Source: Lytechinus pictus (taxonomy: Eukaryota). Taken from it: a stretch of 64,000 nt of DNA. Positions 9,590-60,197 of this stretch are shown piece by piece. The notes below the pieces were generated by a model. The model was not told the DNA's origin, did not search any database, and saw only the letters and a list, made by a program, of their open reading frames with translations. The stretch spans positions 3,722,001 to 3,786,000 of the forward strand of contig NC_087252.1 in NCBI RefSeq assembly GCF_037042905.1, written 5' to 3'. Position 1 is the stretch's first letter, and every line of letters begins with the position of its first letter. Both the position numbers and the translations under genes were made by a program.

Positions 9590-10420
9590 GGTGTCAGTCA
9601 GCGTGGAAGCACAACAACAAAGCTGAGTGACTAGTGAGTAGTATCCCAGACGAAAAGCCGCCAGGCAGGCGGGTGGCGCATTGGAGGAGAGCAAGCCCAG
9701 GCGCGCAGCCCGAGGCCGAGCCCCTGCGGTAATTCGGGCTGTCGCGATCCCCAGTCAAGATCAAGCCAGGCGCTAGCTAGACAGGAATAACCGTCGTTTC
9801 TGGGGATTTATTCAACAATTTCTGACATTTTACTGTAATCCCCATTTACCGACGGTAGGGTGTACGTGTGGGCTCGCATGTGTTCTCATTCCCTCCCTTT
9901 GGCTTTTGTCAATTCACAGTCCAAAGTTTGATGTAATTTTACAGTACACATCGAATTTAAATTACAATCTAAGGTCATGTATAAACAACAAACTTTTAAA
10001 ACTTTATATCTCAATGTTTAAATACTTTAAACGATATAGATGAAAAAGGCATGAAAAATATACTTTACCGATGTTTAATTGGGTTGAACACGATAAAAAT
10101 TGTCAAAATGGCAGCCAAACTATAAAATATTTACAAACGAACGTCAACAATCACGAATGTAATATTGATATTGCTTTCGATATTATACGATCTGCTCCAT
10201 ATGCGAACGAAACCGAAGATAAACGATACTAGTTATACTAGTACTAGTACTAGTAATCGCGATATATCGATTCGAGACATTAAGTTAATAACGATAATGA
10301 CGTCATTCAAGATGGCAACTTGCAAGAAAAACCGTCAGGTCAGGTGAAAATGTCTTAGATGACAGATTTCTCAATCATCCAGAGGATTTTTTTCAATAAC
10401 TCCGGCCCAAGGTATGCAAT
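9590..10420 (+). promoter_or_regulatory. Candidate promoter / non-coding first exon region of ZNF gene A
   Basis: Local GC/CpG-rich patch at 9650-9780. Possible donors ACG|GTAGGG (9854) and AAG|GTATGC (about 10411). CRE TGACGTCA next to YY1-like CAAGATGGC at about 10298-10316. The coding exon at 15107 starts with an acceptor, so an upstream exon is expected. Confidence 0.35.
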
Positions 10421-14930: not shown

Positions 14931-15128
14931 AAACAAAGTAACTACCATGTACAGTGTAGATGGCATTATGCCTGTTGGATCAAGTGAAAACAGACCTACT
15001 CTGCTGCGTTGACAATGCTCCTTTCTTGAACAAAGTTTCACCATCGGTCATCAAGTTAGTTGGGTATTTTTATCACACTGAAGTGTTAATTCTGCTTCTC
15101 CCTCAGACACATGTACAAGATTTGAAAG

Positions 15129-15337
15129 ATGGGGAAGAAAAAGAGAGGACCAGGGTCGTTAAATCTAACAGTTGGAACAAAGAAAGGGACGCTGCGTATA
15201 GCCCCTTGTATCATGATAAGAGATGGAGGCAGGTATCGGATATGGGTCAGCGAGGCAACAATGAAAGGTCTTCTTGAGATTCAGAGTCAACTCTTGTTGA
15301 GTTCATATGATGAGGTCCTGAGCGTACTGCTTGCAAG
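15129..15337 (+). CDS. ZNF gene A, constant coding exon 1 (basic N-terminus plus RHH-like beta-alpha-alpha module)
   Basis: Acceptor TTCTCCCTCAG| at 15106, ATG at 15129, donor AAG|GTTAGT at 15337 (209 nt, phase 2). Peptide MGKKKRGPG...RYRIWVSEATMKGLLEIQSQLLLSSYDEVLSVLLA. Confidence 0.75.
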
Positions 15338-16611
15338 GTTAGTGCAATATTCTAGATTTCTTATTTAATTTTCAAACTAATCAATTCACACACTCCAAGA
15401 AATCTAAACAAATGCCACCAATGTGTGTTTATAGGCATAAAGAAAAGAATCAATTCTGTCGATATTCAAAAGATTGGAAGAGTGATTTTGATATGTTGAT
15501 ATTTTGGGAGCCATGCAAAAAATCATTCAGAATCAAGACAAGGATTGTAAATATCAGATTATAGCAGATCATGATATGATACATTTATCAGACAAAACAT
15601 TGAATTCTGTCTTTCAATATGGCATTCTTGTGACATTTTGGAGGGATATCTTACTTTAAGTAAAGTGTTATTTTTTAAAGAAAAATTTCCCCTGATTTTC
15701 CTTCTTCCCATACAGTTATAAAGAGGTACTAGGCAGAAGGCACAATGCTCAAAGTGAGAGGCTGAATGATTGGTGCTGGAACAGGTATATATACAGTTTG
15801 TATCAGGGAAACTGGTTTTTTTTTTCATGGTGTACATTTTGAGCTGACGAGCCCAATTTTTAGCAACATTACAACAGTTTACAGTGAACCCTATGTGAAT
15901 ATCAAGGGCTCTATTAGTTTCCAAGGGCTCTATAGAACATTGCGCGGGCACCCGGTGTAATTTTACCCCTGATTTGTATGACTTTATTGGTCTTATTTTT
16001 TGTGCATTACATATTTGGGTTGTCTATATCTGTTTGTGCTGTATTCATTATTATGATAACTACAATTGTGGTAATTGTACATTTAAATTGCGCAATTCCT
16101 ATATTTACTGAGCTGCTCATTACAATACTTTACAAATAAGTTTACGATAAGTTTACAAAGAGTATGAATAAGTTATAATTACAGGAAAAAGGGAAGTCTA
16201 CTGTCTTTACAAATTATATAACCAAAAGTGATTTATTTGTTGAAACTCTTGAAAAAGGTAGGTTTTTAGTTTAGTGTTGAACAAGGTAATAGATAATGCG
16301 TTCTGTAGAACCGAACCTGTTCCTTTGACAGATAATCTTTATCTATGCGTTGATTATGATCTGATGTGATTTTCGAGTCACAAAGGCATATGTACATTGC
16401 ATGGCTCATTTCCAGAATAACTTACATTGTAGAAGCAATTGAATAACTGGAATGACAAACTTTATTCACGAATGCACATTTCATTGACTATCTGATGAGA
16501 TCTTTCAGGGTTTTGACAATTTTAGAGTTAAGTTTGCAATACCTCATCTGTCAAAACTGACTTTAGTTGTGATCTACCTTTCAACTGTTGATTTGTTCCT
16601 ATATAATGCAG

Positions 16612-16719
16612 CCCAGTGCAACGAACAGACTCCTGCGAACAATCTTCAAGTAGTACTATGCAATCAGCAACATCAGTCACGGTCCACAGAGAGAAATCCA
16701 GTAAACCGGCTTCATTAGG
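16612..16719 (+). CDS. ZNF gene A, constant exon 2 (108 nt, phase 2-2)
   Basis: ATGCAG|CCCAGTG...TTAGG|GTAGGA. Open frame SPVQRTDSCEQSSSSTMQSATSVTVHREKSSKPASLG links exons 1 and 3. Confidence 0.65.
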
Positions 16720-17164
16720 GTAGGAAATAATTCTGATTTTCAAGCCTGAAATTTTTGTTTCAACTTTGGGGGTAATTACTGAATTTTTTGGGCCAATTCT
16801 TTAATTTCCAAGGCTATTTTTTCCCTGCACAACAAACAATTATCATAGATGCCATTATTTAGAATATTGATTTTTTTGTAATATTACAAATTCTTGATTC
16901 TTACTGTGTCATAGCTTTTAGCATGTTTTGTAGCAAGTTCTCTGCAGACCTGTCCTAAGAGGAGGGACAACTTGAGGCTGCTTTATATAGCTGTTTGAAA
17001 GTATAACTTTATGAATGACTGACGACCCTTTCTTGTTTTTTATGAAGTATCCTTCAGCTGAATTAGCATCCAGAAACATATTGCAGTCATGCATGCATAA
17101 TCTTGAGTATGTCCATCAGTGTGGAAATCTCACATTTCTTGTCATTGTATATTCCCTTCAATAG

Positions 17165-17754
17165 AATCATTGGTAACCAGAAGGCCACTTCCAAGAGAGA
17201 GCAACAGCTATGTGAGACCTACAGCATTGTGAAGGAAGAGTATGTGGAAGACACTTTGACAGAACAGGACCCCTTGCAGGAAGGAAAGTCAGGAGACCGT
17301 AGGACAGAGAGCGAAAGAACTCTCCAGAAGTCTGGACAACCAAGAGGACCCCAAGGGTTTTTCTTGAAGCATGGTAATCTGGAAGATAGACGGACACCCT
17401 TGCTAGAAGACAAGTCAGGAGACTGTAGGACTGAGAGGGAAAGAACTCTTCAGATGTCTGAGAATCCAATAGGAACATGCGAGACTTCCTTGGATCGGGA
17501 AAGTAGACTGACAGGAGAAAGTAGGTCTACGGTACTATCAACGCAAGATCAGCAAGAAGAAGAGTCAGAAGATGACTTGTCCTATGCAGATGATGATATT
17601 AGTGATGATGGCAATAATAACCACAAGAACCTAGTGCATCCATCAGATGAAGGGGACTCAAGGTCCTCCACGTACTTGATGAAGAAAGAACCTGAGGACG
17701 ATGGTAGTTCCGGTGGTGGAAGAGCCAATGAAACACCATCCTGCAGCCAACAAG
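17165..17754 (+). CDS. ZNF gene A, constant exon 3 (acidic, psi-K-x-E motifs), ending in the common phase-1 donor
   Basis: CCCTTCAATAG|AATC acceptor, in the frame of ORF 17103-17819. Ends PSCSQQG at CAACAAG|GTTTGT. Confidence 0.85.
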
Positions 17755-19049
17755 GTTTGTTCTCATTGTCAATTGTCGTAACAAGGCATGTTCACACCTG
17801 CCTGATCACAAAAACTTAGTATTTTGTAATCGCGGTAGATTTCTGATTAAAATCTCTCAATTTCCAGATACCCAACTGGAGAAAGGGTTACAATCAAGCG
17901 CAACTTTGTAATATGTGACTCGTCATACCGAAATGAGAGACAACTCGGAATTTTTCAAATCCAAGTTTGTAGTGATTATTGTTCTCCGTTTCTTTACCTC
18001 TAATTTGATATATCACTCGACCCTTTAGAGTAAATAATAGTGGAGATATTAGCCTTAGAATGCAAGAAGAATTGGGCTTTTGAAAATAAAAATCAAGAGA
18101 AAAACGCCTTCGAAGTTTGACTTCCGTTTTGAATCCGCTCCATGAAAAAATCTATTTTGCCACCGCCGAGCTAACAAAAATGTCCTAGCAACCGCTTGCC
18201 AAAGAAGCCGAAACGATTGACCAATGAGGAGGCTGCATTTGGAACAATAGTGAACTTGCAGGTCAAGCGCGACTACAAGACGAAACAAAGTAAATGTTCT
18301 GGTTCGATATGTCAATCCACTGATCTTCTATACAGATCAGTGTAATAGCTCCATAGTTATACTGGGGTCTTATAATTATATTCGTGAAATAAATAATTGT
18401 CATGATCTCCCTTTTTAGTGAAATAAAAGGCAGGGAGAAAAGGTCGGACCTAAAACCAGTGAGGAGGGAGTATACCAATGATTTTCATTGTATCATCGTC
18501 TTGTTTAATAATAATAACAATTTCATATACCGCAAATTGCCTCTAAGCGGTTGTTTGAATGTCGATCGCGTTTACTCTCACACGTAATCTATCAAGCGAG
18601 TCATTATGACCTAAACTTTAACCGCATGTTCTAATAAAAAGAACTATCCGTTGTAAAATGGTAAGATAAGCCTTCAAAATATTTCAATTTGAACCTTATC
18701 TTTATACGAAAGGCTTGCGTGATCATGTTTTATGAATGCTTATGTTAGATTGAGGCAGTGAGAACAAAAAACGTGAATAATTTGCTCAATATCGTCTATT
18801 ATCGATCTTTTTTTTTTTTGGGGGGGGGGTATAATTATTTACAGCATTGGAATGATTCAAAATCAGTATGAAAAAAAAACAAAGATATATTAATGAAACA
18901 AAAGTTATAGAGATTCTAAAACTGATTCCGGAAAAAAAAAAATGGCATAAACGTCTTAACAAAAAGAGCGAGGAGGTACCCTGAGTAAAATCCCGCCACA
19001 ATTATTTCCAACAAAGGATAGATTAGGAGTTAAGATTTTTTTAAACTAA

Positions 19050-19410
19050 CAAGTGCACACCTAGTTACCAAGAATGCATACAACATTCCATTTATTTGAA
19101 TGCAGGATAAACCCCGGGCTTCCTATGTATAGTCAGGCACATTGGACCACTCGGCCACGACACCTCCACGAATGCTGATTTTCGGATCGATATCAAGCAC
19201 AAACAATATTTTGGTTGTGCCGTGGCCGAGTGGTCAAAGGCGCCTGGCTATACATAAAAAGTCCGGGGTTCGATCCCCGGCCGCGGCATGCACCTATGCC
19301 TGTGAGCAAGGCATTTAATGTGCAATGCTATTTTATCCTGCTTTCAAATAAATGGAAATTCTATAGGCATTATTGGTAGCTTGGTGTGCACTTGTTTAAA
19401 AAAATATATA
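19050..19410. mobile_element. Two copies of one tRNA-derived SINE in inverted, head-to-head orientation
   Basis: The + copy from about 19214 has GTGGCCGAGTGG and GGTTCGATCCC boxes. Its reverse complement (GACCACTCGGCCACGACACC and tail similarity) lies at about 19050-19165. Confidence 0.7.
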
Positions 19411-19539
19411 TATTCTAACGCAGTAATACAGATTAAGAATCAGAAGATTGTTGCAAATGCCTTGTGCAACAATGATGTCTTTGTAAGATTGAATGATTAA
19501 AGAAAGAACAATAAAAGCTGGTCGATATTTTTTCACATG

Positions 19540-20365
19540 TGTTCACTCTCAAACATATAAAGAGGATAAAAAAAATAAGACGAAGAATGGAGGAAAAATA
19601 CGGTGGGCGTGGGCAGGAAAGAGGAAGAAGAAAGAACGGCTGTGAAAAAAAATAGAAGATCGAATGGGGAGAAGAATGAATAATACAGAACAACAAAAGA
19701 AATAAGAGGAAAAAGGATGAGGAATAAGATGGTGGGGTGAGCAAGAGAGAGGAATAAGAAGGAAAAAAGGGGGAAGGAATGAGGTTAAAAAATATTGAGA
19801 GCAGATCGACGGGGGAGAAGAAAAAGATATGGAGGGGGAGAGGAATAAGATGGTGGGAATGGGCAGGGGAGAGGAAGAAGGAAAACATAAATATATAAAG
19901 AGGAACGAAAGAAAAAAAGAGGAATAAGGCGGTGGGTGAGGGAGGGAGAAAACAAAGAAGGAAAAAAGAAAGAAAACCGGCAAAAAGAGAGAAGATCGAA
20001 GGGTGAGAAGAACGAAAAACAGAATTATGTAAATAGAAACGAAAACAAGAAGAAAAGGGGAAAAATTAAAAAAAAAGTGGAGGGTGAAAAAAGGCAAGAC
20101 AGAAGAAGGAAAGGAGGGGGAAAAATCGGCAGAGAAAAAAAAAAGATCGAAAGTGAAGAAAGAAAAACAGATTAGGAGGAACGAAAGAATTAAAGAAGTG
20201 AAAGGGGATGAGATAGAATAGGGGAGGGGGTTAGAGAGAGGAGACCGAATGACCTGAATAAGAAGAGCGAACGAAAAGGGGGAGAGAGGAAGAAAGGAAG
20301 AAATAAAACACAAGAAAGACGAAAGAAGTAGGTAAGAGAATAAGAGAGAGGGAAAGAGAGAATAG
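19540..20365. repeat. Purine-rich (GA/GAA) low-complexity tract
   Basis: About 800 bp of almost pure A/G. It explains the F/S/L-rich minus-strand ORFs. Confidence 0.85.
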
Positions 20366-22469
20366 ATCTGGACACAGTCGAATGGAACAACATGACAATG
20401 ACTTTTATAAAATGTTTATTTCAATATGTGTATTTTAAATGACTAATATTTTCAATCAATGTCTTATACCATATCCCAAAAAAATGCACTAAACCTTCTG
20501 CATGGTCGTTTCGGTCATTATTCATTGGTCGACGTTAGCTGTCTCAGACTTTCTGTTTGTACAGTTATTTATTTCGCTTTCTCTATCGTTCATTCAAACA
20601 GTCATGATAAAAATTGAGGGCAACAATGTCTTGATTATAAATAATTGAAAATAATGAAGCCCACCAAGCTTTCTACATAAATTTTGTCTCTTTTGTTAAA
20701 GATACTGCAGATCAATTAACTCACATTCACGAACAAACAATACTTTTAAGGATTGTAAACCCTTTCTTTTGAAATGTTCTCTCTTGAAAACATCCCGATC
20801 ACTTGCAAATAATGGAGATAATCTTCAACATGTCCATGTTATGTTTAATGAAATTAATCCTCGCAAACAAACCGTGTTCTGAATACTTTGCGTCTCTGCA
20901 TGACTTTTATTTCGCGATTATAGCCAGGCTAATACTCTAAATCCGGTATCAATCTATCGCTAACACCCCCGCCTGGTACTATTATCACCAAAAAATAACC
21001 CTTTAGAAGTTGTATCCCGTTTGTTAACTATTGTCAAGAAGCCCCCCTTTTGAATTTCAGAATACGCATTGAAATCGATGCTTCTGATCTTTCTTTTGAA
21101 GCTGAATCATTGAACCGATCGATCGAGCGAGCGGCCACCGCCAGCTGTACACGAGTTTAAATGAATAGCCAATCAACAATGGCGTACGTTGCTAGGGGCG
21201 GAGCTTAGTATGAAGCGAAATTCGATCAAGTCGAACGTGCCAAGTATCATAAATTTTCGAATTGACCGAAAAAAACACTCGCAGAAAAACTGCTTTTTTA
21301 TCACATTCCCGTCATCAATTTCACTCATCTTTTTCACAGAGTAATTATGAAACATGGAAGAATCAGAAAATGAAAAAAAAAAAAATCTTCACAATTTTGA
21401 CTTTTTTATTTGTGTGTCGAATTCCAAGGAATTTTGATTTGCGACTTGTCTCTCATTTCGGTATGATCGATCACATATGTTTGTTTCTTTGTGGGAAAAT
21501 CAAGTTTTGTTTGAATTTTGGAGTTGCATTTGATCCCAACTCTAACCGCCAAGGGCCCAGATTCTTACTCAGAATTCTGTCACGATTGGAAAATATCAGC
21601 TAACTTTAAGGTGTGAAAGCAATCAACTTGTAATTGCCAAGGGAGAGTGCCAAAAAATAAGTATCTACCTTTCAAAATTCAGGTAACTTAAGCAGCTAGG
21701 GATCTCTCAATGGTTGGGAGAGATTTGCGGTGTGACAGGAAATTATAAATATTGAAAAATGTTGTGAGGCATAGAGTTCATGTTCATTTGCTATAGGAAT
21801 GTGGGTCTTGTAATAGCTCATGTTCGACAAGAAATTTATCTGGTTATGGCAGCTAGGCATAAAAATTGGCAAATAATTACCAGGTATTTTGAAGCTTGAG
21901 TAAGTTATATTCATTTTGTGATCAGAAAAGTTTTGAAAATAATATGGTTTGATATCAGGCACCCAATAGGTATTTGGCTGCACAAAAAGCTTATGAACCA
22001 ATTTAATACTTGAAAGATTGCAGATGATACAAAAAGAACATGCGAATTATCTACATCCATCCAGTCCTCTCATCAAATGGTCTAACTTCATTTAGTGTAA
22101 AATTGTCATTTCATCCTGTTATATTTCATGTACCATCCATTTGGTCTGATATTCATCTTATCCCATCACCAGTTGGTTCATAACTGATTCATCTACCAAC
22201 AGTTAGCCGAATGTTATAACCATTTTGTCTTCATCCAATCTGTCCGACACTTACCCGTCCAATCTTCAGTTTGTCCGATATCATTAAATGAGAAAAATAC
22301 AAGAAAGAAAAAAAACCAAAGAATTAAAGCACCATACATGTAGAGGTTGCGAGTCCAGTATTCCCCCTCCCAGCGAAAACAAAAATATTTTTAGGCAAAA
22401 AGTTTATCTTTTATTTTCAGTGGCTACATTGTACTTTACACAACCTACTGCCTAAATCTTCAACACTGT

Positions 22470-22761
22470 ATAATAATGATAATAATAATAGGCATTTATA
22501 TAGCGCTATCTATCTATACATATATTCTATTCCGAGGTGCGTCGTTATTATTATTACCCCGGCTTTAGCTCGAGCTGCCATTCAGCGCTCATGTATTCAA
22601 GGAATTAATCCTGCCCGGTACCTATTCTCCTCACCTGGGTTGAGTGCAGCACAATGTGGATAATTTCTTGCTGAAGGAAATTACGCCATGGCTGGGATTC
22701 GAACCCATGACCCTCCGTTTGAAAGTCAGAAGACTAATCCACTGGGCCACAACGCTCCACA
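22470..22761 (-). mobile_element. tRNA-derived SINE with (ATT)n tail
   Basis: Minus-strand head TGTGGAGCGTTGTGGCCCAGTGG...GGGTTCGAATCCC, with (AAT)n at about 22470-22490. A related + copy lies at about 46375-46560. Confidence 0.75.
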
Positions 22762-23662
22762 TGGGAATAAGCTATAGCATGTCAGTGAATGGGTATTTTC
22801 CAGGGCTCTTCTGAGCATTTCCAAGTCAGTGGCCGAATTGCCCCATGCCCCTATGTAATTTTTACCCTAATTTAAACACCCCCCCCCCCAACAAAAAAAT
22901 AATAATTAATTGAAACAAGAAAATAAATAAACTGCATTGTGAATCTTGGGAGCGAAAGAGCATTGCCTCCCATCTCTTTCAAATAAATAGAGTGAAAGAT
23001 TAGAGAAAGGCAATTAAAATAGGAAGAACACAAAGTAGAAGCCAGGAGACGATATTGTTTCTGGACGAAACAAATATCAAACAAAATAGTGATTGGCCCT
23101 GATGGCTATTGGACTGTAGGCCAGATGCAAATTAGGCCAAATTACTATTTGCTGAAATGGCTTTACATGTAGGGATAGTAGACCAACTGCATTTCTACCA
23201 AATAGAACATAGATGAGATGAGAGTAGACTAAATGATCATTTGATAGATCAATAGACAAGTTGGCTATTAGACCAAATGTATATAGATGTAATGATAGAC
23301 AAAGTGGCTATCGGACCAACTGGCAAAAAACACAGACCAAATGGCTATTGAACCAAGTGATAATAAATGTACATGTAATTGCTAGTAAACACGCTGGCTA
23401 TTCCATGAAATGGATTGGACAAGATGGTGATTGGACTATATATATGGACAGTGGACCAACTGATAGTAGATTTGATCATGTGATGAGTGGACGAGATGGT
23501 GATTGGACCAACTGATGGTAGATTCGATCATGTGATGAGTGGACGGGATGGCAGTAGACGAAATGGGCATAAACACACCCTGAGAATTAGAGATACATGT
23601 ATCTTGAAGCAATCATCCGTTTTAAATCAGCATTGGACATTTCACCCTGCTCTTCTACTCAG

Positions 23663-25131
23663 GTGGAAATTCAAGTATGCAGAGCACCTCTCAAGGGACT
23701 GGACACATTGAGGAAATGTCAGGTGATAAATCATGTGACAGGTCACATGGGAAAGCTCTTCCAAAAGACTTCCTATTACAAGGTGTGCAAGGAAACCATT
23801 CTGAGTTTCTGATGGGGCAAGTTGCGCAAGTGCATTTCACTATTCTCCCTTTACCAAACAAAGCAGAAAATCTTCAAGGACAGAGTGTGGCCGACAGAGC
23901 TACCCTGCCAGATCCCAATGATGAAAGATTAGATGGAGACCTTGCAGTGGGCTGTGGTGTGAAATGTGACAAAACATCAGGTGATGCATCATGTGACCGA
24001 TCATATGCTCAAGGACAAAAAGTTGCTGACCGTGCTACGATTTCGGATGGTCATGATGGAAGATTGAATGGAGACATCGCAGTGGGATGTAGCATGAAAT
24101 GTGACAGAGCGGGTGATGTCTCGCTTTGCAGATCACATTCTCAAGGACATTGTTCTGTTGACAGTGCTACTGTCTCAGATCATGAAGATGAAAGGTTGGA
24201 TGGAAACATTGCAGTGGGACATGATGAAAAACATGAAATATCAGGTGATGCATCGCAAGGCAGATCTTCTAAAGGACAGAGTATTGCTGACGGTGCTTCT
24301 GTGTCAAATCACGATGATGGAAAAGTGGATAGACGTATTGCAGTGGAGCATGAAGCGAAACCTATAAATGTAACAAACTCTTTTCAAAACAAGCAAAAAA
24401 AGTCTTCAGTATTATGTTCTCCAAGAAGCACCCAAACCAATCCTCGCAGCAAGTCGAGGGAAGATAGACCTTTCGTCTGTACAGTCTGTAATAGAGGATT
24501 TAGCCGTAAGGATAACCTGACCACCCACATGAAAATTCATCAAGCGAAGAGGCGTCGTGATCAGTGCCCGTTCTGCAAGAAAAAATTCCTTTGTAGCACT
24601 TATCTGAGGATGCACATCAAGGTGCACACAGGGGAAGAGCTTTACGTGTGTTCTTTTTGCAAAAAGACGTTTTTCAAAAGGCAAAGTCTTGATGAGCACG
24701 TTAGAACCCACACAGGAGAAAAACCATTTCAGTGCTCATACTGTAATATGAGGTTTGCCCGTGCTGATGCGTTCAAGAGGCACACTCGATCTCACAAGCG
24801 AGAAACATGCCAATTTTGTGACAAAACATTTTCCCAAGCTGACGATCTCAAGACGCACATGAAAAAGCACTCTGCAGAAAAGCCCTTTCAGTGTGGCGAT
24901 TGTGGCCAGAGTTTTGCTACGAAACTCCAGGTTGTCGATCATCAAAAAACCCACGCAGGAGAAGAACCTAACTTTTGTTCTATTTGTGACAAAAAGTTTA
25001 AGAGAAAACATGATTTTATTAGACACATGAGAGTCCATACGGGAGAAAAACCCTATCATTGTCCAGTGTGCTCCAAGAGCTTTTCGGCAAAACGCTCTCG
25101 CAATAGGCATATGAAAATGCATTCAGGTTGA
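23663..25131 (+). CDS. ZNF gene A, alternative terminal exon T1: 8 C2H2 fingers (predicted isoform 791 aa)
   Basis: CTGCTCTTCTACTCAG|GTGGAAATTC phase-1 acceptor, in frame with donor 17754 and ORF 23677-25131. Has 8 CxxC-x12-HxxxH motifs with TGEKP-type linkers. Confidence 0.9.
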
Positions 25132-26324
25132 GATCTGGTAGGTCTTTCACAAAGTGTTGTGTATAATAATTTGTGAACAAATTTTCGGCTTTTCTCCTAT
25201 GTGTTTAAGATTGCATGAGTCAGAAAAAATTGGAACCAGTGGGATTCAAACCCTTCATCTACTGCTTGCCGGGCAGCGACTCAGGTATTACTTAGAGTTG
25301 CACTTAATGTCCAGTTATGTGCCGAATAAAAGGAATCACTGCATTGGTCAAATCTAGCTATTAAAAGAGGACTCACGCTCGTACACTAAGTATTTATCAA
25401 TAAGATTGCAAGTAGTGCGCATCAGCATTAAACATGACTTAAAGTCAAATTAACTCTTTTTGAAACATCCCCCCCTCCTGGTTGCTCAATATAGGGAAAA
25501 TTTTCCCTGACAATAAAGTTGGTTCTCAAATAAGCAGAAAATTAGAGCAAAATATAGGTGAAGGCTTGATGAAATTCATGAAAAACCATCTAAAGACGTA
25601 TGTATATCATTGAGGGAGTTTTGGAAATTTTGATTTATGTTTTTGATTTATGAGTAATGACTTCATAAAAAATACACCATCAAACTATCAATATGTACAA
25701 TCAAATGTACTGAAGTGCATGTATACATTATGCAAATATTATGTGCTATTATTGTGCTAAAAGGTAATTGTAGAAAATGGCTTTAGCATTTATTGATCAA
25801 TATTTTTCAAAAAAAACTACAAGGCATTCTGTAATCCTACATGTACGTGTAGTTTGATTAAAACCCATTTACCATTTTTGGTAGTTTCTAGTGTAATAGG
25901 CTATACACGTTTCATCTAATATCCACTTTATAGTCTAACGCTACTTTGGTCATACATGAATATGGTTTAATAGATCAACTGTTAATGAATGAAATTTTCA
26001 TTTGGCAAAGTAAAAAGTAATAACTAGAGGAAGTAGTAATTAGGCCATTTGGACATGAGATGCAGATCTATGAAAATATTAAGTGTAGAGCAAATGGCAA
26101 TCGGGCCAACTCGATTGTCGACCGAATGGGCTATAACCTACATGTACCTGTACATGTATGTATGTAGAAATATAAAGATTATCTGAGTAGACCGACTCAG
26201 GAACTTGCCATCAATATTTTATTTTTTTTAATTGAAAGTAGCACATGTACATGTATATCAGACAATATTACAAAGAGCAAGTATTCACAATTAATTTTTG
26301 TATTTATTGTGCAATGTGCATGAT

Positions 26325-27506
26325 TTTTTGTCTCGCCTGCATAGCAGAGCGAGACTATAGGCGCCGCTTTTCCGACGGCGGCGGCGGCGGCGTCAACATC
26401 AAATCTTAACCTAAGGTTAAGTTTTTGAAATGACATCATAACTTAGAAAGTATATGGACCTAGTTCATGAAACTTGGACATAAGGTTAATCAAGTATTAC
26501 TGAACATCCTGCCTGAGTTTCAGGTCACATGACCAAGGTCAAAGGTCATTTAGGGTCAATGAACTTTGACCATGTTGGGAAAATTATTTTCAAAATCTTA
26601 ACCGAAGGTTAAGTTTTTGAAATGACATCATAACTTAGAAAGTATATGGACCTAGTTCATGTAACTTGGGCATAAGGTTAATCAAGTATTAGTGAACATC
26701 CTGCTCGAGTTTCAGGTCACGTGACCAAGGTCAAAGGTCATTTAGGGTCAATGAACTTTGGTCAAGTTGGGGGTATTTGTTGAATTACTATCATAACTTT
26801 GAAAATTTATGGATCTAGTTCATGAAACTTGGACATAAGGTTAATCAAGTATTAGCAAACATCATGTGCGAGTTTCAGGTCACATGACCATGGTCAATGG
26901 TCATTTAAGGTCAATGAACTTTGGCCGTGTTGGGGGTATTTGTTAAATTACCATCCTAACTCTGAAAGTTTACGGATTTAGTTTTAAAACTTGGACATAA
27001 GAGTAATCAAGTATCACTGAACATCCTGTACGAGTTTCAGGTCACATGACCATGGTCAAAGGTCATTAAAGGTCAATGAACTTTGGCCGTGTTGGGGGTA
27101 TTTGTTAAATTACCATCCTAACTGAAAGTTTATGGATCTAGTTCATAAAACTTGGGATATAAGAGTAATCAAGTATCACTGAACATCCCCTGTGAGTTTC
27201 AGGTCACAAAACCAAGGTCAAAGGTCAGTTAAGGTCAATAAACTTAGGCCATGTTCGGGTAATTGTTGAATTGCCATCATAACTTTGAAAGTTTATAAAT
27301 AGAGTGAATGAAATGTGGACATGGATGTAGTTGACAAGTCTTAAGTCACCGTTCAAATGTCATTTATGGTCAATGAACGTGGTATTATGTCATTATATGA
27401 ATGGTGTTTTTGTGAATGATTATTTTATAGTAGTTTTCAAAGTTAGCACTGCTGCTATATTAAATCGCGTAATGCAGGCGAGACTGCCAGAGGCGTTCCA
27501 CTTGTT
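26325..27506 (+). mobile_element. Helentron-associated / DINE-1-like non-autonomous element with internal tandem repeats
   Basis: Subterminal IR GTCTCGCCTGCA...TGCAGGCGAGAC, a short 5' hairpin, and 5-6 internal repeats of about 160-190 bp (GGTCACATGACC core), in a T-rich site. Partial copies at about 12390-12686 and 38185-39027. Confidence 0.75.
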
Positions 27507-28074
27507 TAATAGAAAATCTGGAGCAACAGACTTTGTTTTTATCTGTTTAAAGTGTCCAGACATACTGTAGGACCCCCATCCCAATCATGATTCAGTATTT
27601 TAGAATTTGTGGGTCAAACTCTTGAATAAATCATGATACAATAGTGGTGATTGTGTATGTTCAAGGAGAAATCAACCCATGTACATTTGAGGAAAATTGA
27701 AATAGTTCATCTCACACAATACAGTACTGTACATTTAATTCATAATTGTCCTGCTGTGTGTGATGCAAAAATACATGTACATACCTGGACCCCATTGCAT
27801 AAAATTTACTATACTAGTAACTTTGCCATCCAGTGGTAACTACCATGGCAACGATGATCAACAGCCAATCAAAATCCAGGATTTCATGGAGGTTACCATT
27901 ACATGGCAAAGTTACCATAATGGTAACTTTCATGCAACTTTTATGCAGCAGGGCCCCGTTGCATAAAAGTTACCATGATTTTGAGGTGGACTTGACCTTT
28001 AAAAAAGGACTGTAGAACCAGATGAAATTGCTGATTTTTCAAACTTAATGTACTGCCTTCCTATTTTCATTCAG

Positions 28075-29291
28075 GTGTGAATTCAACTATCAAGACGACC
28101 TATGGTACCAAGGAAACCTATCAGGATATATCAGGTGGCACGTCACATGACATATCACATGGGGGACCTGTTCCAGAGGAATGGATCTTACATGGTGCAC
28201 AAGAAAACTATTCCGATGTATCTGCCAGGGCCAGTTGCTCAAGTGAGTATGACTCTGAACTGTTACCAAGGCAAGCTGACTATCCACAAGGACATAGTGC
28301 GACTGACAGTGATACCATGATAGATCATAATGATGGAGGATTAGATGAAGACATTGTGATGGGATGTGATGTAAAAGGTGACATGTCAGGTGATGCATCA
28401 TGTGACTGGTCACATGCTCAAGGACTGAGTGTTACTGACAGTGCTACTGCATCAGATCATGAAGAAGGCAATGCAACGGGACCTAGTGAGGAATGTCGAA
28501 CAACCTTATCAGACATCAAACAGTCTCCTTTTTGTCCAGTTTGCAATGAACAATTAACCAGCAGCGATGACTGGACTGATCATTTCAGATTACACGGCGA
28601 ACTCTGGCCTCATGAATGCACCTTCTGCAACGAAAGGTGTGCCACTCTCAAAGATCTTAACAGACACTTGCGAGTCCATCCTGGAGCTAGACCACACAAG
28701 TGCTCCATTTGTGGCAGACGCTTCTTGGAAGAATATCATCTCAGAGAACACATGGCAGTTCATGCGGCACAGAAGCGATATCAGTGCAAGTTTTGCGAGA
28801 GGACGTACGCCCGGAGGGGCAGCCTGTATGCACACATAAAGACACATGAGAGAACTTATCAATGCAAGCATTGTGATATGAGGTTTACTCATCGGATCAT
28901 GCTGTCGGAGCATACAAGATCGCATCACTCCTTGATTAAAAAAAAAACGTTTGAGTGCTCTATTTGTCACAGGAAATTTGCGAGATCTGCTGACCTCATC
29001 GGTCATCGAATAGTCCACACTGGAGAGAAACCTTTTCAATGTTCTCAGTGTGGCAAAACTTTTTCCTACAAAAGAGTGCTTGTCACCCACGAGAAGATTC
29101 ACACGGGAATAAAGGATCATCTGTGCCCTATCTGTGGGAGGGTGTTTGGTAGAGACTACATTTTACAACAACACATGTTAATACATACAGGGGATTTACC
29201 CTTTTCGTGTTCCGTATGTTCTAAGAACTTTCGGCAAAAGAGTACAATGGTAAAGCATATGAAAAGCCAACACCCAACTCTGGCCAATTAG
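28075..29291 (+). CDS. ZNF gene A, alternative terminal exon T2: 9 C2H2 fingers (predicted isoform 707 aa)
   Basis: CTATTTTCATTCAG|GTGTGAATTC phase-1 acceptor, in frame with donor 17754 and ORF 28077-29291. The ORF-track start is GTG, not ATG. Confidence 0.9.
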
Positions 29292-29394
29292 GTCTGAATT
29301 CACAAAGGTGGTTTTGAAAACCATTGGTTGATTCCAAATTTTTTGTATAGATTACACTCACTTTACCACGTCCATTGGAAAATGTCCAATATTG

Positions 29395-48774: not shown

Positions 48775-49328
48775 GTGGGAATTCGAGTGAGCAGAGGAGC
48801 AATGAGGAAATGGCAGGTGATGCATCATGTGACAGATCACATGCTCATGGACTGAGTTCTGCTAACAGTGCTTACTTGTCAGATCATGGAGAATTGGCTG
48901 AAGATACCACAACCCAAAATGTGTATTATGAGACACGTGAAGAAGCATCTTCAGGGAAGGTTTACAGCATATTTTCGCCTAGAAGCTATCAACATGATCC
49001 TCCCCAGGACCCTGGCATTGATAAACCTTACGTCTGCCCTGTTTGCAGTAAAGGATTTACCCGCAGCGATTGCTTTCGAAGGCATAAGAAAACGCATCGT
49101 AGTGAAAGGCCTCATGAGTGCCATTTATGCCCAAAGAGGTTTCAGCGTGCCGAAGATCTCCGAAGACACCTACGAACCCACTCTGGAGAAAAACCATATG
49201 CATGCTCCGTTTGCAATCGACGCTTTGGTAGGAACTCAAGTCTCAAACAACATATGGCACGTTATGAGGTTAGCTGCGACACTGGTCAACGTGTGATTAA
49301 ATGTATAATGGAAAAAGTGCTTGTATAA
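48775..49328 (+). CDS. ZNF gene B variable exon a1: 2 canonical C2H2 fingers plus 1 atypical finger (isoform 421 aa)
   Basis: CTGCTCTCCTACTCAG|GTGGGAATTC phase-1 acceptor, in the frame of ORF 48726-49328. Confidence 0.85.
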
Positions 49329-49573
49329 CGAGATGAAAGTTTGTTATGTAGATGCACACAAGATACCATACTGGAGAAAACAGTTTTGCCACGAAAGAAT
49401 TTCCAAGCTCGTCATCTTACTGTACAGGAAAGAATCCACACAGGAAAGAGTGTCTTGGAATATCTGCTTGTGTTATCAAAAGCATTTCCATCATGACTTT
49501 CAGCAACCTTGTGAACCTCGTTATCCATGTAAATTCCTTTGCGTCAAAGTGCAGCACATAATAGATATTTCAT

Positions 49574-50153
49574 TTGAGTATGCAGAGCATCTGTGAAGAC
49601 ATCAGGAAAAATGAGGGAATGTCAGGTGATACATCATGTGACAGATCACATGTTCATGGACAGAGTGCTGGTACCAGTGCTGTTTCAGATCAATTGGCTG
49701 AAGATATCACGACCCAATCTGTGTACGGTGAGACACATGAAGAATCATTTTCAAGGATGTTTTACAGCATATTTTTACCTAGAAGCAATCAACATAATCC
49801 TCCCCAGGACCCTGGCATTGAAAAACCTCATGTCTGCCCTGTTTGCAGGAAAGGATTTACCCACATCAATTGCTTTCGAAGGCATAAGAAAATCCATCGC
49901 AATGAAAGGCCTCATGTGTCATTTATGACCGAAAAAATTTCAACGTGCCGAAGATCTCCGAAGGCACATGTGGAAACACAAGGAGAAAAACCATATATGC
50001 TCAGTATGCGATAAACGCTAATAGTTGGAACTCAAGTTTCAAAAACCATTTGGCAGTTCATAAATGAGAAAAACTATATATATGCTCAGTATGCGATAAA
50101 CGCTAATAGTTGGAACTCAAGTTTCAAAAACCATTTGGCAGTTCATAAATGAG
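49574..50153 (+). pseudogene. Gene B variable exon b1, defective
   Basis: Homologous to b2/b3, but the CTGCTCTTTTACTCAG|GTGG acceptor is deleted. Frameshift after finger 1, in-frame stops, and an about 85 bp tandem duplication at 49983-50153. Confidence 0.8.
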
Positions 50154-50468
50154 GTTAGCAATGTTTGATTAGATGTACTTAGTGGAAAAGGGAATGTATT
50201 ACAAGATGAAAGTCTGTCATGTCAATATACTGTCAATGCACACAAGATATGCAAGAAAAAACAGTTTTGCCACGAAAAAATTTCCAAGTTCATCATCTAG
50301 CTGTACAGGAGAATCAACATGGGAAAGAAAGTCTTGGAATAACTGTTTGCGTTATCAAAAGCATTTCCGCCAAGACTTCTGGTACCCTTGTGAACATCTT
50401 AGCCATGAAAATTCATTTGCGTAAAAGTGCAGCACATGATAGATATTTTATTCTGCTCTTTTACTCAG

Positions 50469-51457
50469 GTGGGAATTCAAGCAAACAGAGCTCCTGTCAA
50501 GAAATAGGGAACACTCAGATAATGTCAGGTGATACATCACATGACAGATCACATGGGAAGCATCTCCCAGGTGACTACCCTTTACCAGCTGTCCTAGGAA
50601 CCCCTTCCCATTCATCTCCCAGAGGCCATCGCTCAAGTGAGTATGGCTCCTATCTCTTGCCAAACCAAGTGGATTATCCTCAAAGACAGAATGCAACTGA
50701 CAGTGCTACCATGTCAGATCGGAAGAGGTTGGATGGAGGCATTGTGGTGGAGAATGAGAATTATGACACATATTCTTTACAAAACACAAAAAGGTCATTC
50801 CCCGTCGAGACAAGAAGCATTCAAAGTACTTCTTGCATCAATCCCGAAGGAGAAAACACTTTTCTCTGTTCCATTTGCAGTAAGGAATTTAACCGCAAGC
50901 ATAATTTGAGGCGGCATATGAAATTCCATGAAGGAAAAAGACCTCACACGTGCTCTTTCTGCAACAAAACTTTTGTACAAAAAGGCGATCTCAGGAGACA
51001 TGAGCGATCCCATACTGGGGAAAGACCGTATTCATGTTGTTTTTGTGACAAACGCTTTATAGATACATCCCACCTAAAAGCTCATTTGTTAATTCACACT
51101 GGAGAAAAGCCGTATGAATGCAGCCTTTGTGACAAAACCTTTTCTCATAAAGCTAGCCTAACGGTTCACCTGAGATTGCACAGTGGTGAGAAGCCATTCA
51201 AGTGTTCACTCTGCGACAACAGCTTTTCTTTGAAAAGTCAGCTCATGAATCATCAGATCAAACACACGGGCATAAAGCCATACCAGTGCTCGGTTTGTGA
51301 GAAAAGGGTCGGGACAAAAAGCTCTTTAAGTCAACATATGAAGATTCATTCAGGAGAAAAACCATTTCAGTGTTCTGTATGTTCAAAGTGCTTTCGGCGG
51401 AAGAGTACTCTTAAAAAACATATGAAAATCCATGGAATCTCTTGTGAGGACTTGTGA
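50469..51457 (+). CDS. ZNF gene B variable exon c1: 7 C2H2 fingers (isoform 566 aa)
   Basis: CTGCTCTTTTACTCAG|GTGGGAATTC acceptor, in the frame of ORF 50219-51457. AATAAA at about 51594. Confidence 0.9.
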
Positions 51458-52516
51458 TTTCCTATGAAACACTGTCAAATCATCAATGTTCGGCAGACGT
51501 TACACATTTCTAACCGGGGAGCTTTTCATATAATCTTTTGTCAACGATTTTTCGTGACTTATTCGATCTCAACCAATGATCACTTAAAACAGTAATAAAC
51601 AGTGCAAATCTTTGATTATTTCTTACATGAAATTATCCCATTGTTTCATCTATTGTTTTGAGTGGTATACGTACTGTGTGCAATGTTTACTTTGCATTTC
51701 AAGGATGTGGAATTAAAGTGGAGAAGAAGTGAATTATGATTCAAATCACTGTTTATGATATCAAACATACAGAGATGCCAACTGTCCTATACTGGATTTA
51801 CATTTTTTCTCTGAAAATATTTATCTTACTTTTTTTCATTTTTAAATTTAAGAAAAAGACAATTAGCAAATTTGCTCTGGTCTGAAATCTGAAACAAGTA
51901 AAATCTGCTGAGTTTGATGAGGGATGAAATGTCGAGAGATTTTTGGAATATCAGATTTTTACATTTTTATTGATATTTAGATTAAGCACATTCCATCAAT
52001 AAAATACTTTCAGAGGAATTTTAACTTGAATTTTATTTTGGAAAATCTCCTTTTTGTGGTCCCAAACATAATGTATTTAAGTTGATATAATTTTGTTGAT
52101 AAAATATTAAACTCAAAAGTCAAGTGTCGTGAAACTTTACAACAATATTCTCCTTAAAGATATCTGATAACCAGCAAAATCTGAAAGCTTTTTAAAACAT
52201 TTGTATAGGTTTAAAATCTCTGAATGGCTAATATGTAAGGTGCACTACATGTATATCTTGGACTGTAAGGCCCAAGATAAACAAATGTGTACTGAGGCCG
52301 GCCTTGGAGATACCTTGACATACAGTGTATACATCAGCTCAGCTTACTATTTTTGATTGCTAGACTGGACTGTGTCCACCTACGTACAAGGCGATGTGAG
52401 TCCCTCAATTACTCTAAGGTGGCTTAAGCATTGAACTACAAATAGCTAGCAAAAGTTATTACTAACGAACAAGAGAAAATGTTGACGTGAAAAGACAGTT
52501 GATTCGTGTCACTTAA

Positions 52517-53259
52517 CCCTAAAAAGACTGGATTTATTGCAAAAAATGACAGTGGGGGCTGAATCAGCCCTCCCCCTCAACATTTTTCGTGATAAATCCA
52601 CCACTTAAATTTTTATTACTGCATCGCTCATTGACTTTTTACTTTTTTAAAGTCTTGTGCAACTTCTGAGATAAAAAATGCGACCCCCAGGTAAGCGGTT
52701 CCGAGATTACGCAACATTTTGTAAGTGCATGCAGACCCAAAATTACTCAAAAATGTGAATTCGTGTAAAAATCCAATGCAAATAGTGTTTTTAGCCATAA
52801 TTCATAAATGTACATGTATCATTTATTTTTCCTTTTACTAATTAAAATCAAATGATCTCTTGTTCATGGTCAAAATAAAATGCCCAACAATTTCCATTGA
52901 AAAAAAGCAATAAACAAAAAGTGGAAAACAAGGAACATCAGAAATCTAGAAAACAATGTGATGTTGATTTTTTAAACTACATTTGATCATATTCCTATAA
53001 AGAGTCTTTGATCCAAAATTAGCATATGATAGGCATTATTTACTGAATTAGAGCAAACTTTTTTATTTAATGCATAATCAATTAGCCATGAGATTTTTTC
53101 GCAGAATTTGACCATTGAGTTTTGTAGAAAATGCTATGGATAAGGCACGTGCCAATTTTTGTCGCGATCATGCTATTGACGGCCGAGATCTTAAGGGGGA
53201 CTGATTCAGGCCCCCCCCCCCCCAGTCTTAGGCGTCGAAATAGCCCAGTCTATTTATGG
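52517..53259. mobile_element. piggyBac-like MITE (TTAA TSD); duplicated copy at about 58466-59208
   Basis: TTAA|CCCTAAAAAGACTGG...CCAGTCTATTTATGG|TTAA. The second copy ends CCAGTCTTTTTAGGG|TTAA. Confidence 0.8.
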
Positions 53260-53685
53260 TTAAATAGGCGATGTGGATAAAGAATCTCAAAGCAGTTTCA
53301 GTCTTCTAGCATGTGTGGAACACCACCCAAATTGCTTGGTTGAGGCCGGCTCAAAAGCTGGTGTTGGATGTGGCTTCAAACCCAATGCATGTGTATCTTG
53401 GGTCTTAGCCTGAAGAATTTGGCAAAAGACTACCTCTCTAGCATCACATAAAAGAACCCACAAAGTCATTTCCTGACACTTTATAAGTCAATAGGGCGTT
53501 ACATTTACATGTAGCTTTTCTAAATTAGGTACAATTTTCAGTCAGACTGAATTCTTTTCAACAATTTTACATGACTGCCTGGGAAGCAATAAATCATTAG
53601 TATGGTCTCTGCTTACTTTCTCTGGATGGTTATAGGATAGATATTAGAAGCATTCTGTTCCATTTTTAAACTCATCAATGATAAT

Positions 53686-54031
53686 AATAATAATATTCCG
53701 CATTTATAAAGTGTTAATACATCGGAACGACGTCTCTAAGCGCTTTACAGACATATTATTACCCCGGTCATCGGATCCTTGCATGCCCGCATACAATGTA
53801 TGCACCCTCTCCACTCCCTGGGGAGCATTCCAACAAGAGTTCCAAGACTCAATTGCTAGGCATACTACATAGGCTTTCGCATCCTACCAGGTACCCATTT
53901 AACACCTGGGTGGAGAGTGGCAAAGTGTGGATTAATGCTTGCCAAAGGACGCTAGGCCATGGTGGGATTCGAACACACGACCATCTGATTACAAGGCGAG
54001 AGTCAGAACCACTTCACCACGACGCTTCCAC
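53686..54031 (-). mobile_element. Full-length tRNA-derived SINE inserted 19 bp upstream of exon a2
   Basis: Minus-strand A/B boxes and (ATT)n tail. TSD ATGATAAT at 53678-53685 and 54032-54039. Empty site in the duplicate at about 59645. Confidence 0.85.
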
Positions 54032-54050
54032 ATGATAATTATATGCTCAG

Positions 54051-54535
54051 ATGGGAATTCAAATGTGCAGAGCACCTGTGAAGGTATCAGGAAATATTAG
54101 GAAATGTCAGGTGATACATCATGTGACAGATCACATGCTCATGGACAGAGTTCTGCTACAAGTGCTAACATGTCAGATCAATTGGCTGGAGACATCACGA
54201 CTCAATGAGGGTATGGTGAGATGGTTGAAGAAGCATTTTCAAGGAAGTTATTTTCAACTAGAAGTAATCAACATAATCCTCCCCCGGACCCTGGCATTGA
54301 TAAACCTTTTCTCTGCCCTGTTTGCAGTAAAGGATTTACCCACAGCGATTGCTTTCAGAGTCATAAAAACCCATCGAAAGGAAAGGACTCATGTGTCATT
54401 TATGACGAACCTGCGAAGATGTTTGCAATTACATGCGGACCCACACTGGAGAAAAACCATATGTATGCTCCATCTGTGATCAACGCTTTGGTAGGAACTA
54501 AAGTCTCAAAAAAATATATAGCACGTCAAAGCTGA
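54051..54535 (+). pseudogene. Gene B variable exon a2, defective
   Basis: ATGCTCAG|ATGGGAATTC acceptor. The phase-1 frame hits TAG after ...CEGIRKY (about 54098). Fingers are frameshifted. Confidence 0.8.
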
Positions 54536-54831
54536 GGGTAGCAACATCACTTGTCAACGTGTGATAAAATGTCTAGTAGAAAAAGTGCTTGTATTACAAG
54601 ATGAAAGTTATGTCAATACAACAGTTTTGTTGTGAAAAAATTTCCAAGCTCATCATCTTACTGTACAGGACAGAATCCACACAAGACAAAATTTCTTTGA
54701 ATATCTGTTTGTGCTATCAAAAGCATTTCCATCAAGACTTCTGGTGATCTTTTGAACCTCATTATCAATGAAAATTCCTTTGTGTCAAAGTGCCGCACAT
54801 AATAGATATTTGATTCTGCTCTTTTACTCAG

Positions 54832-55343
54832 GTGGAAATTCAAGTGTACTAAGCATCTGTGAAGAGATCAGGAAAAATGAGGAAATGTCAGGTGATACAT
54901 CATGTGACCGATCACATGCTCATGGACTGAGTTCTGCTAACAGTGCTTCCAGGTCATATCAAGGAGAATTGACTGAGGACATAATGACCCAGTACATGTA
55001 TGTGTGTGGTGAGACACATGAAGAAGCATTTTCAAGGAAGTTATTTTCACCTAGAAGTAATCAACATAATCCTCCCCAGGACCCTGGCATTGATAAAACT
55101 TACACCTGCCCTGTTTGCAGTAAAGGATTTACCCGCAATGATTGCTTTCAGAGGCATAAGAAAATCCATCGAAAGGAAAGGCCTCATGTGTGCCGTTTAT
55201 GCCCGAAGAGATTTCTGCGTGCCGAAGATCTTCGAAGACATATGCGGATACACACTGGAGAAAAACCATATGTATGCTCTGTATGCGATAAATGCTTTAG
55301 TTGGACTTCTAGTTTCAAACGCCATTTGACAGTTCATAGATGA
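54832..55343 (+). CDS. ZNF gene B variable exon b2: 3 C2H2 fingers (isoform 407 aa)
   Basis: CTGCTCTTTTACTCAG|GTGGAAATTC acceptor, in the frame of ORF 54768-55343. Confidence 0.88.
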
Positions 55344-55660
55344 GGTTGGCAACATAACTGGTTACGGTGTGGTTAGATGTTTAGTGGAAAAATATGTCAA
55401 TATTCTGTCAATGCACTCAAGATACCATACTGGAGAAAAACAGACTTGCCACAATGAACATGTCCAAGTTCATCATCTATTAACCTGTACAAAAGAATCA
55501 TCATGGGAGAAAAGGTCTTGGATGTTATTTTTTTGCTTTATCAACAGTATTTCTGCCAAGACTTCTGGTACTTATGTGAACATCCTTATCCATGAAAAGT
55601 ACTTTGTGTAAAAGTGCAACACATAATAGATATTTTATTCTGCTCTTTTTAAATACTCAG

Positions 55661-56637: not shown

Positions 56638-56756
56638 TTTCCTACGATAAAAGTATGGCAGATATTAAAAATTATTATCCGACGAGCATTTCATAATCTT
56701 TTGTCAGCGATTTTCCCTGACTTATTCGGTCTCAACCAATGTAATATTTCACTTAA

Positions 56757-59642: not shown

Positions 59643-60117
59643 CAATGATAATTTGAGTGTTCATGGACTGAGTTCTGCTACAAGTGCTAACATGTCAGAT
59701 CAATTGGCTGAAGACATCACGACTCAATGTGTGTATGGTGGTGAGATGCTTGAAGAAACATTTTCAAGGAAGTTATTATCACGTAGAAGTAATCAACATA
59801 ATCCTCCCCAGGACCTTGGCATTAATACACATTACCTCTGCCCTGTTTGCAGTAAAGGATTTACCCGTAGCGATTGCTTTCAGAGTCATAAAAAACCCAT
59901 CGAAAGGAAAGGCCTGATGTGTCATTTATGCCCAACGTGCGAAGATGTTTGCAATTACATGCGGACCCACACTGGAGAAAAACCATATGTATGCTCCGTT
60001 TGCAATCAATGCTTTGGTAGAAACTCAAGTCTCAAACAACATATGGCACGTTATGAGGTTAGCTGCATCACTGGTCAACGTGTGATAAAATGTATAATGG
60101 AAAAAGTGCTTGTATAA
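59643..60117 (+). pseudogene. Gene B variable exon a3, defective
   Basis: The original acceptor and first about 85 nt are deleted. The nearest TTTTTACTCAG| (59642) gives A-M-I-I-stop in phase 1. Fingers 1-2 are degenerate. Confidence 0.75.
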
Positions 60118-60197
60118 CGAGATGAAAGTTTGTTGTGTCAATACAACGTTGAAAAGTGCCGCACATAATGGATATTTCATTCTGCTCTTTTACTCAG

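Follow-up and report, generated by a model that had tools for sequence, protein, structure and literature searches.

In Drosophila, the TTK-type BTB loci lola and mod(mdg4) join constant exons to alternative 3' exons with different finger domains, as described in the portions of PMC11426971 and PMC12692577 that were available. KRAB, FiNZ and fish 'KRAB-like' genes combine a short N-terminal effector exon with a tandem finger array on a single 3' exon, and these genes are clustered and duplicating (available portions of PMC10547256, PMC9101882 and PMC11603059). Here, a 64,000-nt stretch of the sea urchin Lytechinus pictus genome (812 Mb), referred to as the window, was analysed (contig NC_087252.1, G000:C8:3722001-3786000; all other positions count from its first letter). 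It was found to contain two paralogous genes, A and B, in which constant 5' exons precede several 3' exons, each carrying an array of C2H2 zinc fingers. The likeness to lola and mod(mdg4) is that constant 5' exons with an N-terminal domain, here a predicted one, are joined to one of several zinc-finger 3' exons. Nevertheless, Pfam gave no BTB match in exons 1 and 4 of gene A or exon 1 of gene B, and none was present in the precomputed Pfam columns of full-length family proteins, so that the family works like lola and mod(mdg4) but is not a member of that group. It also differs in belonging to a deuterostome, in the long tandem arrays of its variable exons (2-16 fingers), and in having 2-12 such exons per gene over several paralogs instead of 20-30 at one locus. 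Its layout is colinear in cis, with internal donors that chain exon stubs and no sign of trans-splicing. As in the KRAB, FiNZ and fish 'KRAB-like' genes, a short N-terminal effector exon is joined to a single-exon tandem array in clustered genes; but whereas KRAB-type families owe their diversity mainly to duplication of whole genes, here it is the finger exon that has multiplied behind a single constant part. KRAB had no Pfam match in exons 1 and 4 of gene A or exon 1 of gene B, nor in the precomputed columns.

The constant part of gene A consists of four coding exons on the forward strand, 976 nt in total. Exon 1 (15108..15337, coding 15129-15337 from the ATG at 15129) was defined by a spliced RNA contig (record 2) and RefSeq orthologues. 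It is followed by exon 2 (15716..15784, 69 nt, in frame), exon 3 (16612..16719, 108 nt) and exon 4 (17165..17754), which is acidic, contains two psi-K-x-E motifs and ends in the donor PSCSQQ|G. An earlier annotation made from the letters of the window (the sequence-only reading) had given three constant exons of 907 nt, overlooking the 69-nt exon. That exon was found in all three RefSeq orthologue proteins, and the 177 unlisted letters of contig record 2 equal 69+108, the lengths of exons 2 and 3. The donor at 17754, CAGCCAACAAG|GTTTGT, is in phase 1 as had been claimed. Contig record 2 has ∼72 letters, ending in AG, upstream of the 15108 acceptor. A probable 5' untranslated region (UTR) exon was placed on this basis at 10341..10412 (forward strand, start uncertain), where the donor AAG|GTATGC at 10412 lies in CpG-rich surroundings (observed/expected ratio 1.22).

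Two variable exons follow on the same strand. T1 (23663..25137) encodes a 269-aa linker and eight C2H2 fingers, with the stop at 25129-25131 and AATAAA at 25325, and T2 (28075..29291) encodes a 150-aa linker and nine fingers. Both frames, 23663-25131 and 28075-29291, were confirmed to be open and in frame with the constant part, giving predicted proteins of 814 aa (constant+T1) and 730 aa (constant+T2). The two arrays are strongly diverged: finger regions are 39% identical, linkers 40%, and recognition helices have at most three of seven letters in common per pair among the best matches listed, which agrees with the divergence claimed earlier. Compared with Lytechinus variegatus, the fingers are 93% identical in T1 and 94% in T2 (linkers 82% and 90%), and 29 of 32 base-contacting positions in T1 and all 36 in T2 are unchanged. 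The T1 acceptor, CTGCTCTTCTACTCAG|GTGG, is a single base off the gene B acceptors at 50469 and 54832, bearing out the near-identity noted before; the T2 acceptor is more diverged from them.

It is very probable that gene A is real and makes both proteins. Reads of 4 of the 23 listed runs were aligned over 10101-30000; three of these are stranded raw RNA runs from one study. The junction 17754>23663, which the sequence-only reading had proposed to look for, was present in a 1361-nt spliced contig (record 2, run X19, depth 2), in the order exon 1, 177 letters, exon 4, T1. For the direct junction to T2, 17754>28075, the evidence is of other kinds, namely RefSeq models, read depth and the cross-species conservation of the T2 fingers given above. 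In L. variegatus, one gene (LOC121420435 X1/X2) has both endings, XP_041471002/3 being constant+T1 and XP_041471004 constant+T2, and a model of the older L. pictus assembly, XP_054760254, is constant+T2. In all three RNA runs the summed sense depth of T1 and T2 was 0.62-0.87 of that of the last constant exon, with T2/T1 ratios of 1.0, 1.76 and 1.25. Because an exon found only downstream of T1 should not exceed T1 in depth, these ratios favour a direct join of the constant part to T2. A repeat family with internal tandem units (26390-27510, 12380-12690 and 38236-38485) shows very high RNA depth originating from copies elsewhere.

Several observations weigh against the constant+T2 protein. The junction 17754>28075 was not among the joints listed for 10101-30000, where repeat-derived joints dominate, and the only T2-joining contig listed (record 5) starts in the 3' UTR of T1. 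The RefSeq isoforms are predicted models whose read support is not visible, and no current-assembly model of gene A was among those returned. The depth comparison is also coarse, with 664-nt bins, 3-13x coverage, a single study and a match threshold of 90%. In contig record 5, position 25137, 6 nt past the T1 stop, is spliced to the T2 acceptor at 28075, with T2 out of frame as 3' UTR; T1 is thus not always terminal, as had been assumed. The T1 stop lies close to this junction, so the transcript is predicted to escape the usual 50-nt rule, under which transcripts with a stop upstream of a junction decay (PMC13187750, available portion). These data raise the alternative that T2 is mainly a 3' UTR exon added after the T1 stop and that constant+T2 is minor or exists only in models, for which record 5 and the missing direct joint speak. 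We consider it improbable: T2 has kept an open frame of 405 codons whose first own Met is at codon 81, its base-contacting residues are fully conserved, its depth was at least that of T1 in every run, and constant+T2 appears in two independent annotations. Hardly credible is a separate T2 gene whose 5' exons would lie between 25131 and 28075, the outcome that the sequence-only reading had named as fatal to its proposal. One 500-nt window near 25932-26431 has a CpG observed/expected ratio of about 1, at a repeat edge; but the 2.9 kb gap between T1 and T2 contains no open frame longer than 79 codons, no family donor was found in it by the donor pattern search, and T2 is joined to upstream gene A sequence in the contig and the RefSeq models. 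The assignment of T2 to gene A is therefore supported by the RefSeq models, the conservation of both arrays and the gap free of open frames. Trans-splicing of variable exons transcribed from promoters of their own, the mechanism at mod(mdg4) and lola, is argued for by the analogy in overall layout alone (PMC12692577 and PMC11426971, as far as available) and would be very improbable, since every variable exon is found 3' of the constant exons of its gene and in the same orientation, the chained models without exception follow genomic order, and the intronic sense depth between T1 and T2 is ∼1x outside repeats.

Gene B shows the same design on a larger scale. Its constant exons (forward strand) lie at 35286-35551, with the same N-terminal motif as gene A, at 39387-39434, at 40510-40787 (PSVSQQ|G) and at 44433-44552 (PSCSKQ|G). 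The sequence-only reading had reported that gene B carries a donor identical to that of gene A; the letters do match at 40787, but this site closes the penultimate constant exon, and the constant/variable donor is that at 44552, CAGCAAGCAAG|GTTTGT. Variable exons on the forward strand start at 48775, 50469, 54832, 55661, 60198 and 61027 (span 48775..62015), with degenerate copies near 49570, 54050 and 59640, and further exons lie past the window at G000:C8:3786830, 3791525 and 3796249. The array (48746-62100) shows a tandem duplication of a unit of one short and one long array, 54787-56724 and 60153-62100 being 92% identical.

A genome count of such loci had been proposed in the same reading. 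The genome-wide donor pattern gave five matches, in A, B (twice), C and D, all within the family, against none in the control, and the stub motif gave 20 matches, again with none in the control. Donor and stub matches were confined to two clusters on the same contig, C8, 3.4 Mb apart. The genes contain 16 intact variable exons: two in A, nine in B (plus three degenerate), two in C, two in D and one in E. Each of A, B, C and D has at least two distinct finger endings among stored RefSeq proteins. In Strongylocentrotus purpuratus, the PSCSKQ|G junction recurs in the model XP_011679011, with repeated stubs after it. Two findings run against a uniform family: gene E has a single variable exon in the 120 kb examined, and the N-terminus of XP_011679011 is a pipsqueak-type helix-turn-helix (PF05225) in place of the exon-1 domain, which indicates that this domain is not universal in the family. 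The constant regions of A and D are 42-45% identical, those of B and C 38-41%, and those of A and B 26-32%, so that A and B are not the closest pair. The four genes and the S. purpuratus model indicate that the design did not arise recently by accident in gene B. With two or more endings in each of A-D, arrays of gene A conserved across species and the junction kept in S. purpuratus, the earlier proposal of a family-level system held, and a small echinoid C2H2 family with a constant/variable design is supported.

To date the split between T1 and T2, trees were made from the non-finger part of the 16 intact variable exons; the three degenerate B copies were left out, and finger arrays were compared pairwise only. 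T1 and T2 were sisters in none of three trees. T2 paired with C1 in two, with support of 96/91 (protein) and 89/93 (340-nt DNA), while the stub alone gave no resolution. The exons of A or of B did not form one group in any of 200 DNA bootstrap trees. Grouping by gene was rejected by the approximately unbiased (AU) test for C (p 0.011) and B (p 0.035); for monophyly of the A exons, p was 0.049 (340-nt DNA), 0.11 (stub DNA) and 0.22 (protein linkers). From these sequence comparisons, the T1/T2 split is likely, although unproven, to be older than the A/B duplication. The same tree pattern could also arise by exchange of exons between loci or from shared linker repeats. The claim that the architecture predates the A/B duplication thus stood in part: it is favoured by the separation of T1 and T2 in all trees, but the AU values for A leave the dating unproven.

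The same data bear on another explanation, that the isoforms are real but the last exon was duplicated independently in each gene after the gene duplications, the design being a recurrent by-product of tandem duplication of a single-exon array. This is unlikely, yet has to be taken seriously. Gene B contains very young pairs (B5/B8 and B6/B9, with 92% DNA identity over 1.9 kb) as well as degenerate copies, monophyly of T1 and T2 was not rejected with protein linkers or stub DNA, and a linker repeat common to T1, T2 and C1 could pull the trees. On the other hand, the absence of by-gene clusters of A or B from the bootstrap trees and the rejection of monophyly for C, for B and, marginally, for A on 340-nt DNA speak against it; several stubs already follow the shared donor in the S. 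purpuratus model, and an internal donor would be purposeless in a single-exon ancestor. It was observed that the T1 linker at 23874-24354 consists of approximately three to four copies of a 45-codon unit that is also present in T2, C1 and B11.

Inspection of the variable exons suggested a feature beyond alternative last exons. An in-phase GTGAG[TA] donor was present in 12 of the 16 variable exons at nt 140-185 (147-177 nt past the acceptor), whereas control windows twice as long had none (0/16). As the motif is also conserved coding sequence, its presence alone is no proof of use. All six current gene B models examined that have the constant N-terminus employ these sites to chain stubs of 50-90 codons from successive exons, in genomic order, before the last full array; models of the older assembly use B1 or B3 whole. 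Exon B3 is used whole in P0055 and as a stub in P0009 and other gene models, and S. purpuratus isoforms differ by one 53-aa stub. In L. variegatus models, exons are also used whole, and an array can also be exited after its fifth finger. Exon B12 (L016:249-1426) has a GTGAG donor within its array, after finger 5, which is also present in the L. pictus genome; L. variegatus models use a donor of this type to join part-arrays, giving proteins of up to 1519 aa. The chaining in gene B rests on gene models and not on reads. On these models, exons with an internal 5' splice site serve both internally and terminally, as composite terminal exons do, and composite exons with a putative in-phase internal donor are a new observation for the family. 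The sequence-only reading had recognised the constant/variable layout but overlooked both the internal donors and the N-terminal domain. In gene A, T2 retains the internal phase-1 donor TCAA|GTGAGT at 28242, while the T1 copy has decayed and slipped out of phase. T1 was locally frame-shifted over a short stretch at 23830-23870, the site of the family donor, and the peptide encoded there is altered in the same way in L. variegatus T1, indicating that the loss is common to both species.

Exon 1 of A, B, C and D encodes a common 39-residue motif, in gene A at about codons 35-69. Pfam gave no match for exons 1 and 4 of gene A or exon 1 of gene B. A profile search of 1.84 billion representatives retrieved 31 proteins at E values up to 0.001, comprising family members, many small unnamed proteins, P0031 (a finger protein of a pipefish relative with two motif copies) and P0015 (a transposase-like sea-urchin gene product with the motif). 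In the AlphaFold2 model of the motif (predicted local distance difference test score 86), an extended segment is followed by helices at 14-26 and 32-40. The best structural neighbours were MazE, NikR, TCP, ParD, PutA, CopG and Arc; we take 22 of the top 23 neighbours to be ribbon-helix-helix (RHH) proteins or RHH-like TCP, and two titles name the fold. As in the RHH repressors CopG, Arc, NikR, MazE and ParD and in plant TCP, the motif is thus predicted to have an extended segment and two helices in ∼36 residues; its match scores are below significance, and, unlike the RHH repressors, it belongs to an animal and precedes an acidic region and C2H2 arrays. The family profile also found P0033 (E 2e-4), which is itself below the cutoff for RHH_1 and DUF7557. 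The assignment is weakened by several results: the monomer model has no DSSP strand, the best Z was 4.6 (root-mean-square deviation 2.1, 36 aligned residues) with none ≥5, the best Foldseek E was about 1, the family profile against full-length CopG gave a weak E of 0.55, Atlas neighbours were RHH clusters at 0.76-0.78, and Pfam RHH models matched none of six family members. Taken together, these are consistent leads and not proof, and the exon-1 domain probably adopts an RHH-like fold. Dimerisation through it has, on the predicted model, a somewhat better than even chance. P0020, with two tandem motif copies, was folded without a paired sheet (predicted template modelling score 0.43) and gave weak structural matches, with a best Z of 4.8, but its short linker makes this result uninformative. 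Every constant region contains two to three psi-K-x-E motifs, the SUMO consensus, and SUMO-dependent repression through the constant region might follow.

The motif also occurs outside the finger genes. It stands at the N-terminus of the product of L025 (G000:C1:13421719-13421838), a gene without zinc fingers that is orthologous to S. purpuratus LOC579169 (943 aa). Proteins that have a ZSWIM3-type domain at the N-terminus, as well as a fish finger protein and a fish transposase-like fragment, contain two copies per chain (P0021, P0027, P0035, P0031, P0017). No finger protein of S. purpuratus with the motif was retrieved by the profile searches, whose sensitivity was limited by the word index.

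P0015 is of interest for the origin of the domain. It was assigned as Mutator-like by Atlas (0.93), has 62 matches in the genome and no match in Pfam. Its motif was found at E 2e-8 with a broad profile from which its near-copy had been removed, and at E 0.003 with the four zinc-finger-gene rows only. The motif was absent around all three intronless transposase copies checked, and the direction of transfer is therefore not shown; capture of the domain from a transposase gene is plausible. According to the available part of 10.1101/2020.05.07.082677, host-transposase fusions mostly place the DNA-binding part of a transposase behind a host KRAB domain. The sea-urchin genes are like such fusions in that their N-terminal motif also heads the intron-containing Mutator-like transposase gene (P0015), but differ in that the candidate transposase piece stands in front and the intronless copies lack it. 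The pipsqueak-type start of the S. purpuratus relative presumably resembles the N-terminus of pogo-type transposases. The name 'Kolobok' was also considered for the P0015-type transposase; the available part of PMC9587614 does not settle it, and the Atlas assignment is Mutator-like. No usable ends were identified when two transposase copies were scanned for inverted repeats. Young copies are suggested by intronless Mutator-like transposase frames that score identically on separate contigs (C6:19100639, C13:23102993; C15, C19, C29).

Next to gene E, the opening four exons of a Mutator-like transposase gene with introns (85-95% identical to P0015) were found at G000:C8:240388-260057 (L003-L005). 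These transposase-like exons do not include the catalytic portion, sit immediately upstream of the last constant exon of E, and could be the real 5' end of E. Because two L. variegatus models of E lack the motif, E was left out of the domain carriers despite the motif at C8:240388. Within the window, fragments at 3378-4513 and 29400-29830 resemble, as judged by eye, the reverse-transcriptase end of non-LTR (long terminal repeat) retrotransposons.

A model can be proposed for how the constant and variable parts are combined. A single promoter would drive the constant exons, encoding the ∼40-residue beta-alpha-alpha domain, predicted to be RHH-like, and an acidic region with SUMO-consensus motifs, and closing in the conserved phase-1 donor. 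Downstream would follow a tandem series of paralogous 3' exons, each providing its own acceptor, linker, complete finger array and stop. The constant part would be joined to one array by cis-splicing that is probably tied to the choice of poly(A) site, so that one gene could yield proteins with one effector half and different DNA specificities. Through the internal donor about 50-59 codons in, an exon may be used whole as the terminal exon or as a stub spliced to a later variable exon. Since T1 has lost this donor, the T2 protein would need direct skipping of T1, and the donor past the T1 stop could append T2 as 3' UTR, leaving the T1 protein unchanged. We hold the constant/variable model as a whole with high confidence: the joins 17754>23663 and 25137>28075 were observed in contigs, and 17754>28075 and stub chaining come from RefSeq models. 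The fold, dimerisation, SUMO-dependent repression and poly(A) coupling are its inferred steps. A bolder version is possible but doubtful. In it, a lola-like system would have evolved independently in sea urchins, with an RHH domain, a fold characteristic of bacterial repressors, from a Mutator-like transposase gene replacing BTB for dimerisation. Isoforms and paralogs might then bring two different C2H2 arrays together in one complex, the array being chosen in a stepwise relay through composite exons, each of which would either terminate or pass on through its internal donor, with the stubs in the linker recording the path, and the same domain in fish finger proteins and small animal proteins would be an overlooked transcription factor module.

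The isoforms themselves are already listed in RefSeq, including constant+T1 and constant+T2 (LOC121420435 X1/X2 and neighbours in L. variegatus, LOC129266428 and neighbours in L. pictus, XP_011679011 in S. purpuratus). These models carry automatic names only ('zinc finger protein 235-like', 'starmaker-like'), with no constant-part domain and no recognition of the family. No description of this zinc-finger family was found in the literature searched, most subscription journals lying outside the search. The family, the composite exons and the N-terminal domain thus appear to be undescribed.

If the constant/variable model is true, a finger design of constant and variable parts, familiar chiefly from BTB genes of arthropods, has evolved a second time, in a deuterostome and with other components. 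Counting genes would then understate the finger diversity of sea urchins, as four genes hold at least 15 intact arrays (16 if gene E is included). With the internal donors comes a testable mechanism for selecting among distant last exons that needs no trans-splicing. Although Pfam has no model for the constant domain, the domain occurs in finger proteins of sea urchins and fish as well as in transposase-like genes, and the structure of a dimer would establish it as a new effector module of animals. L. pictus being a laboratory species, knockouts of single isoforms and binding maps are within reach.

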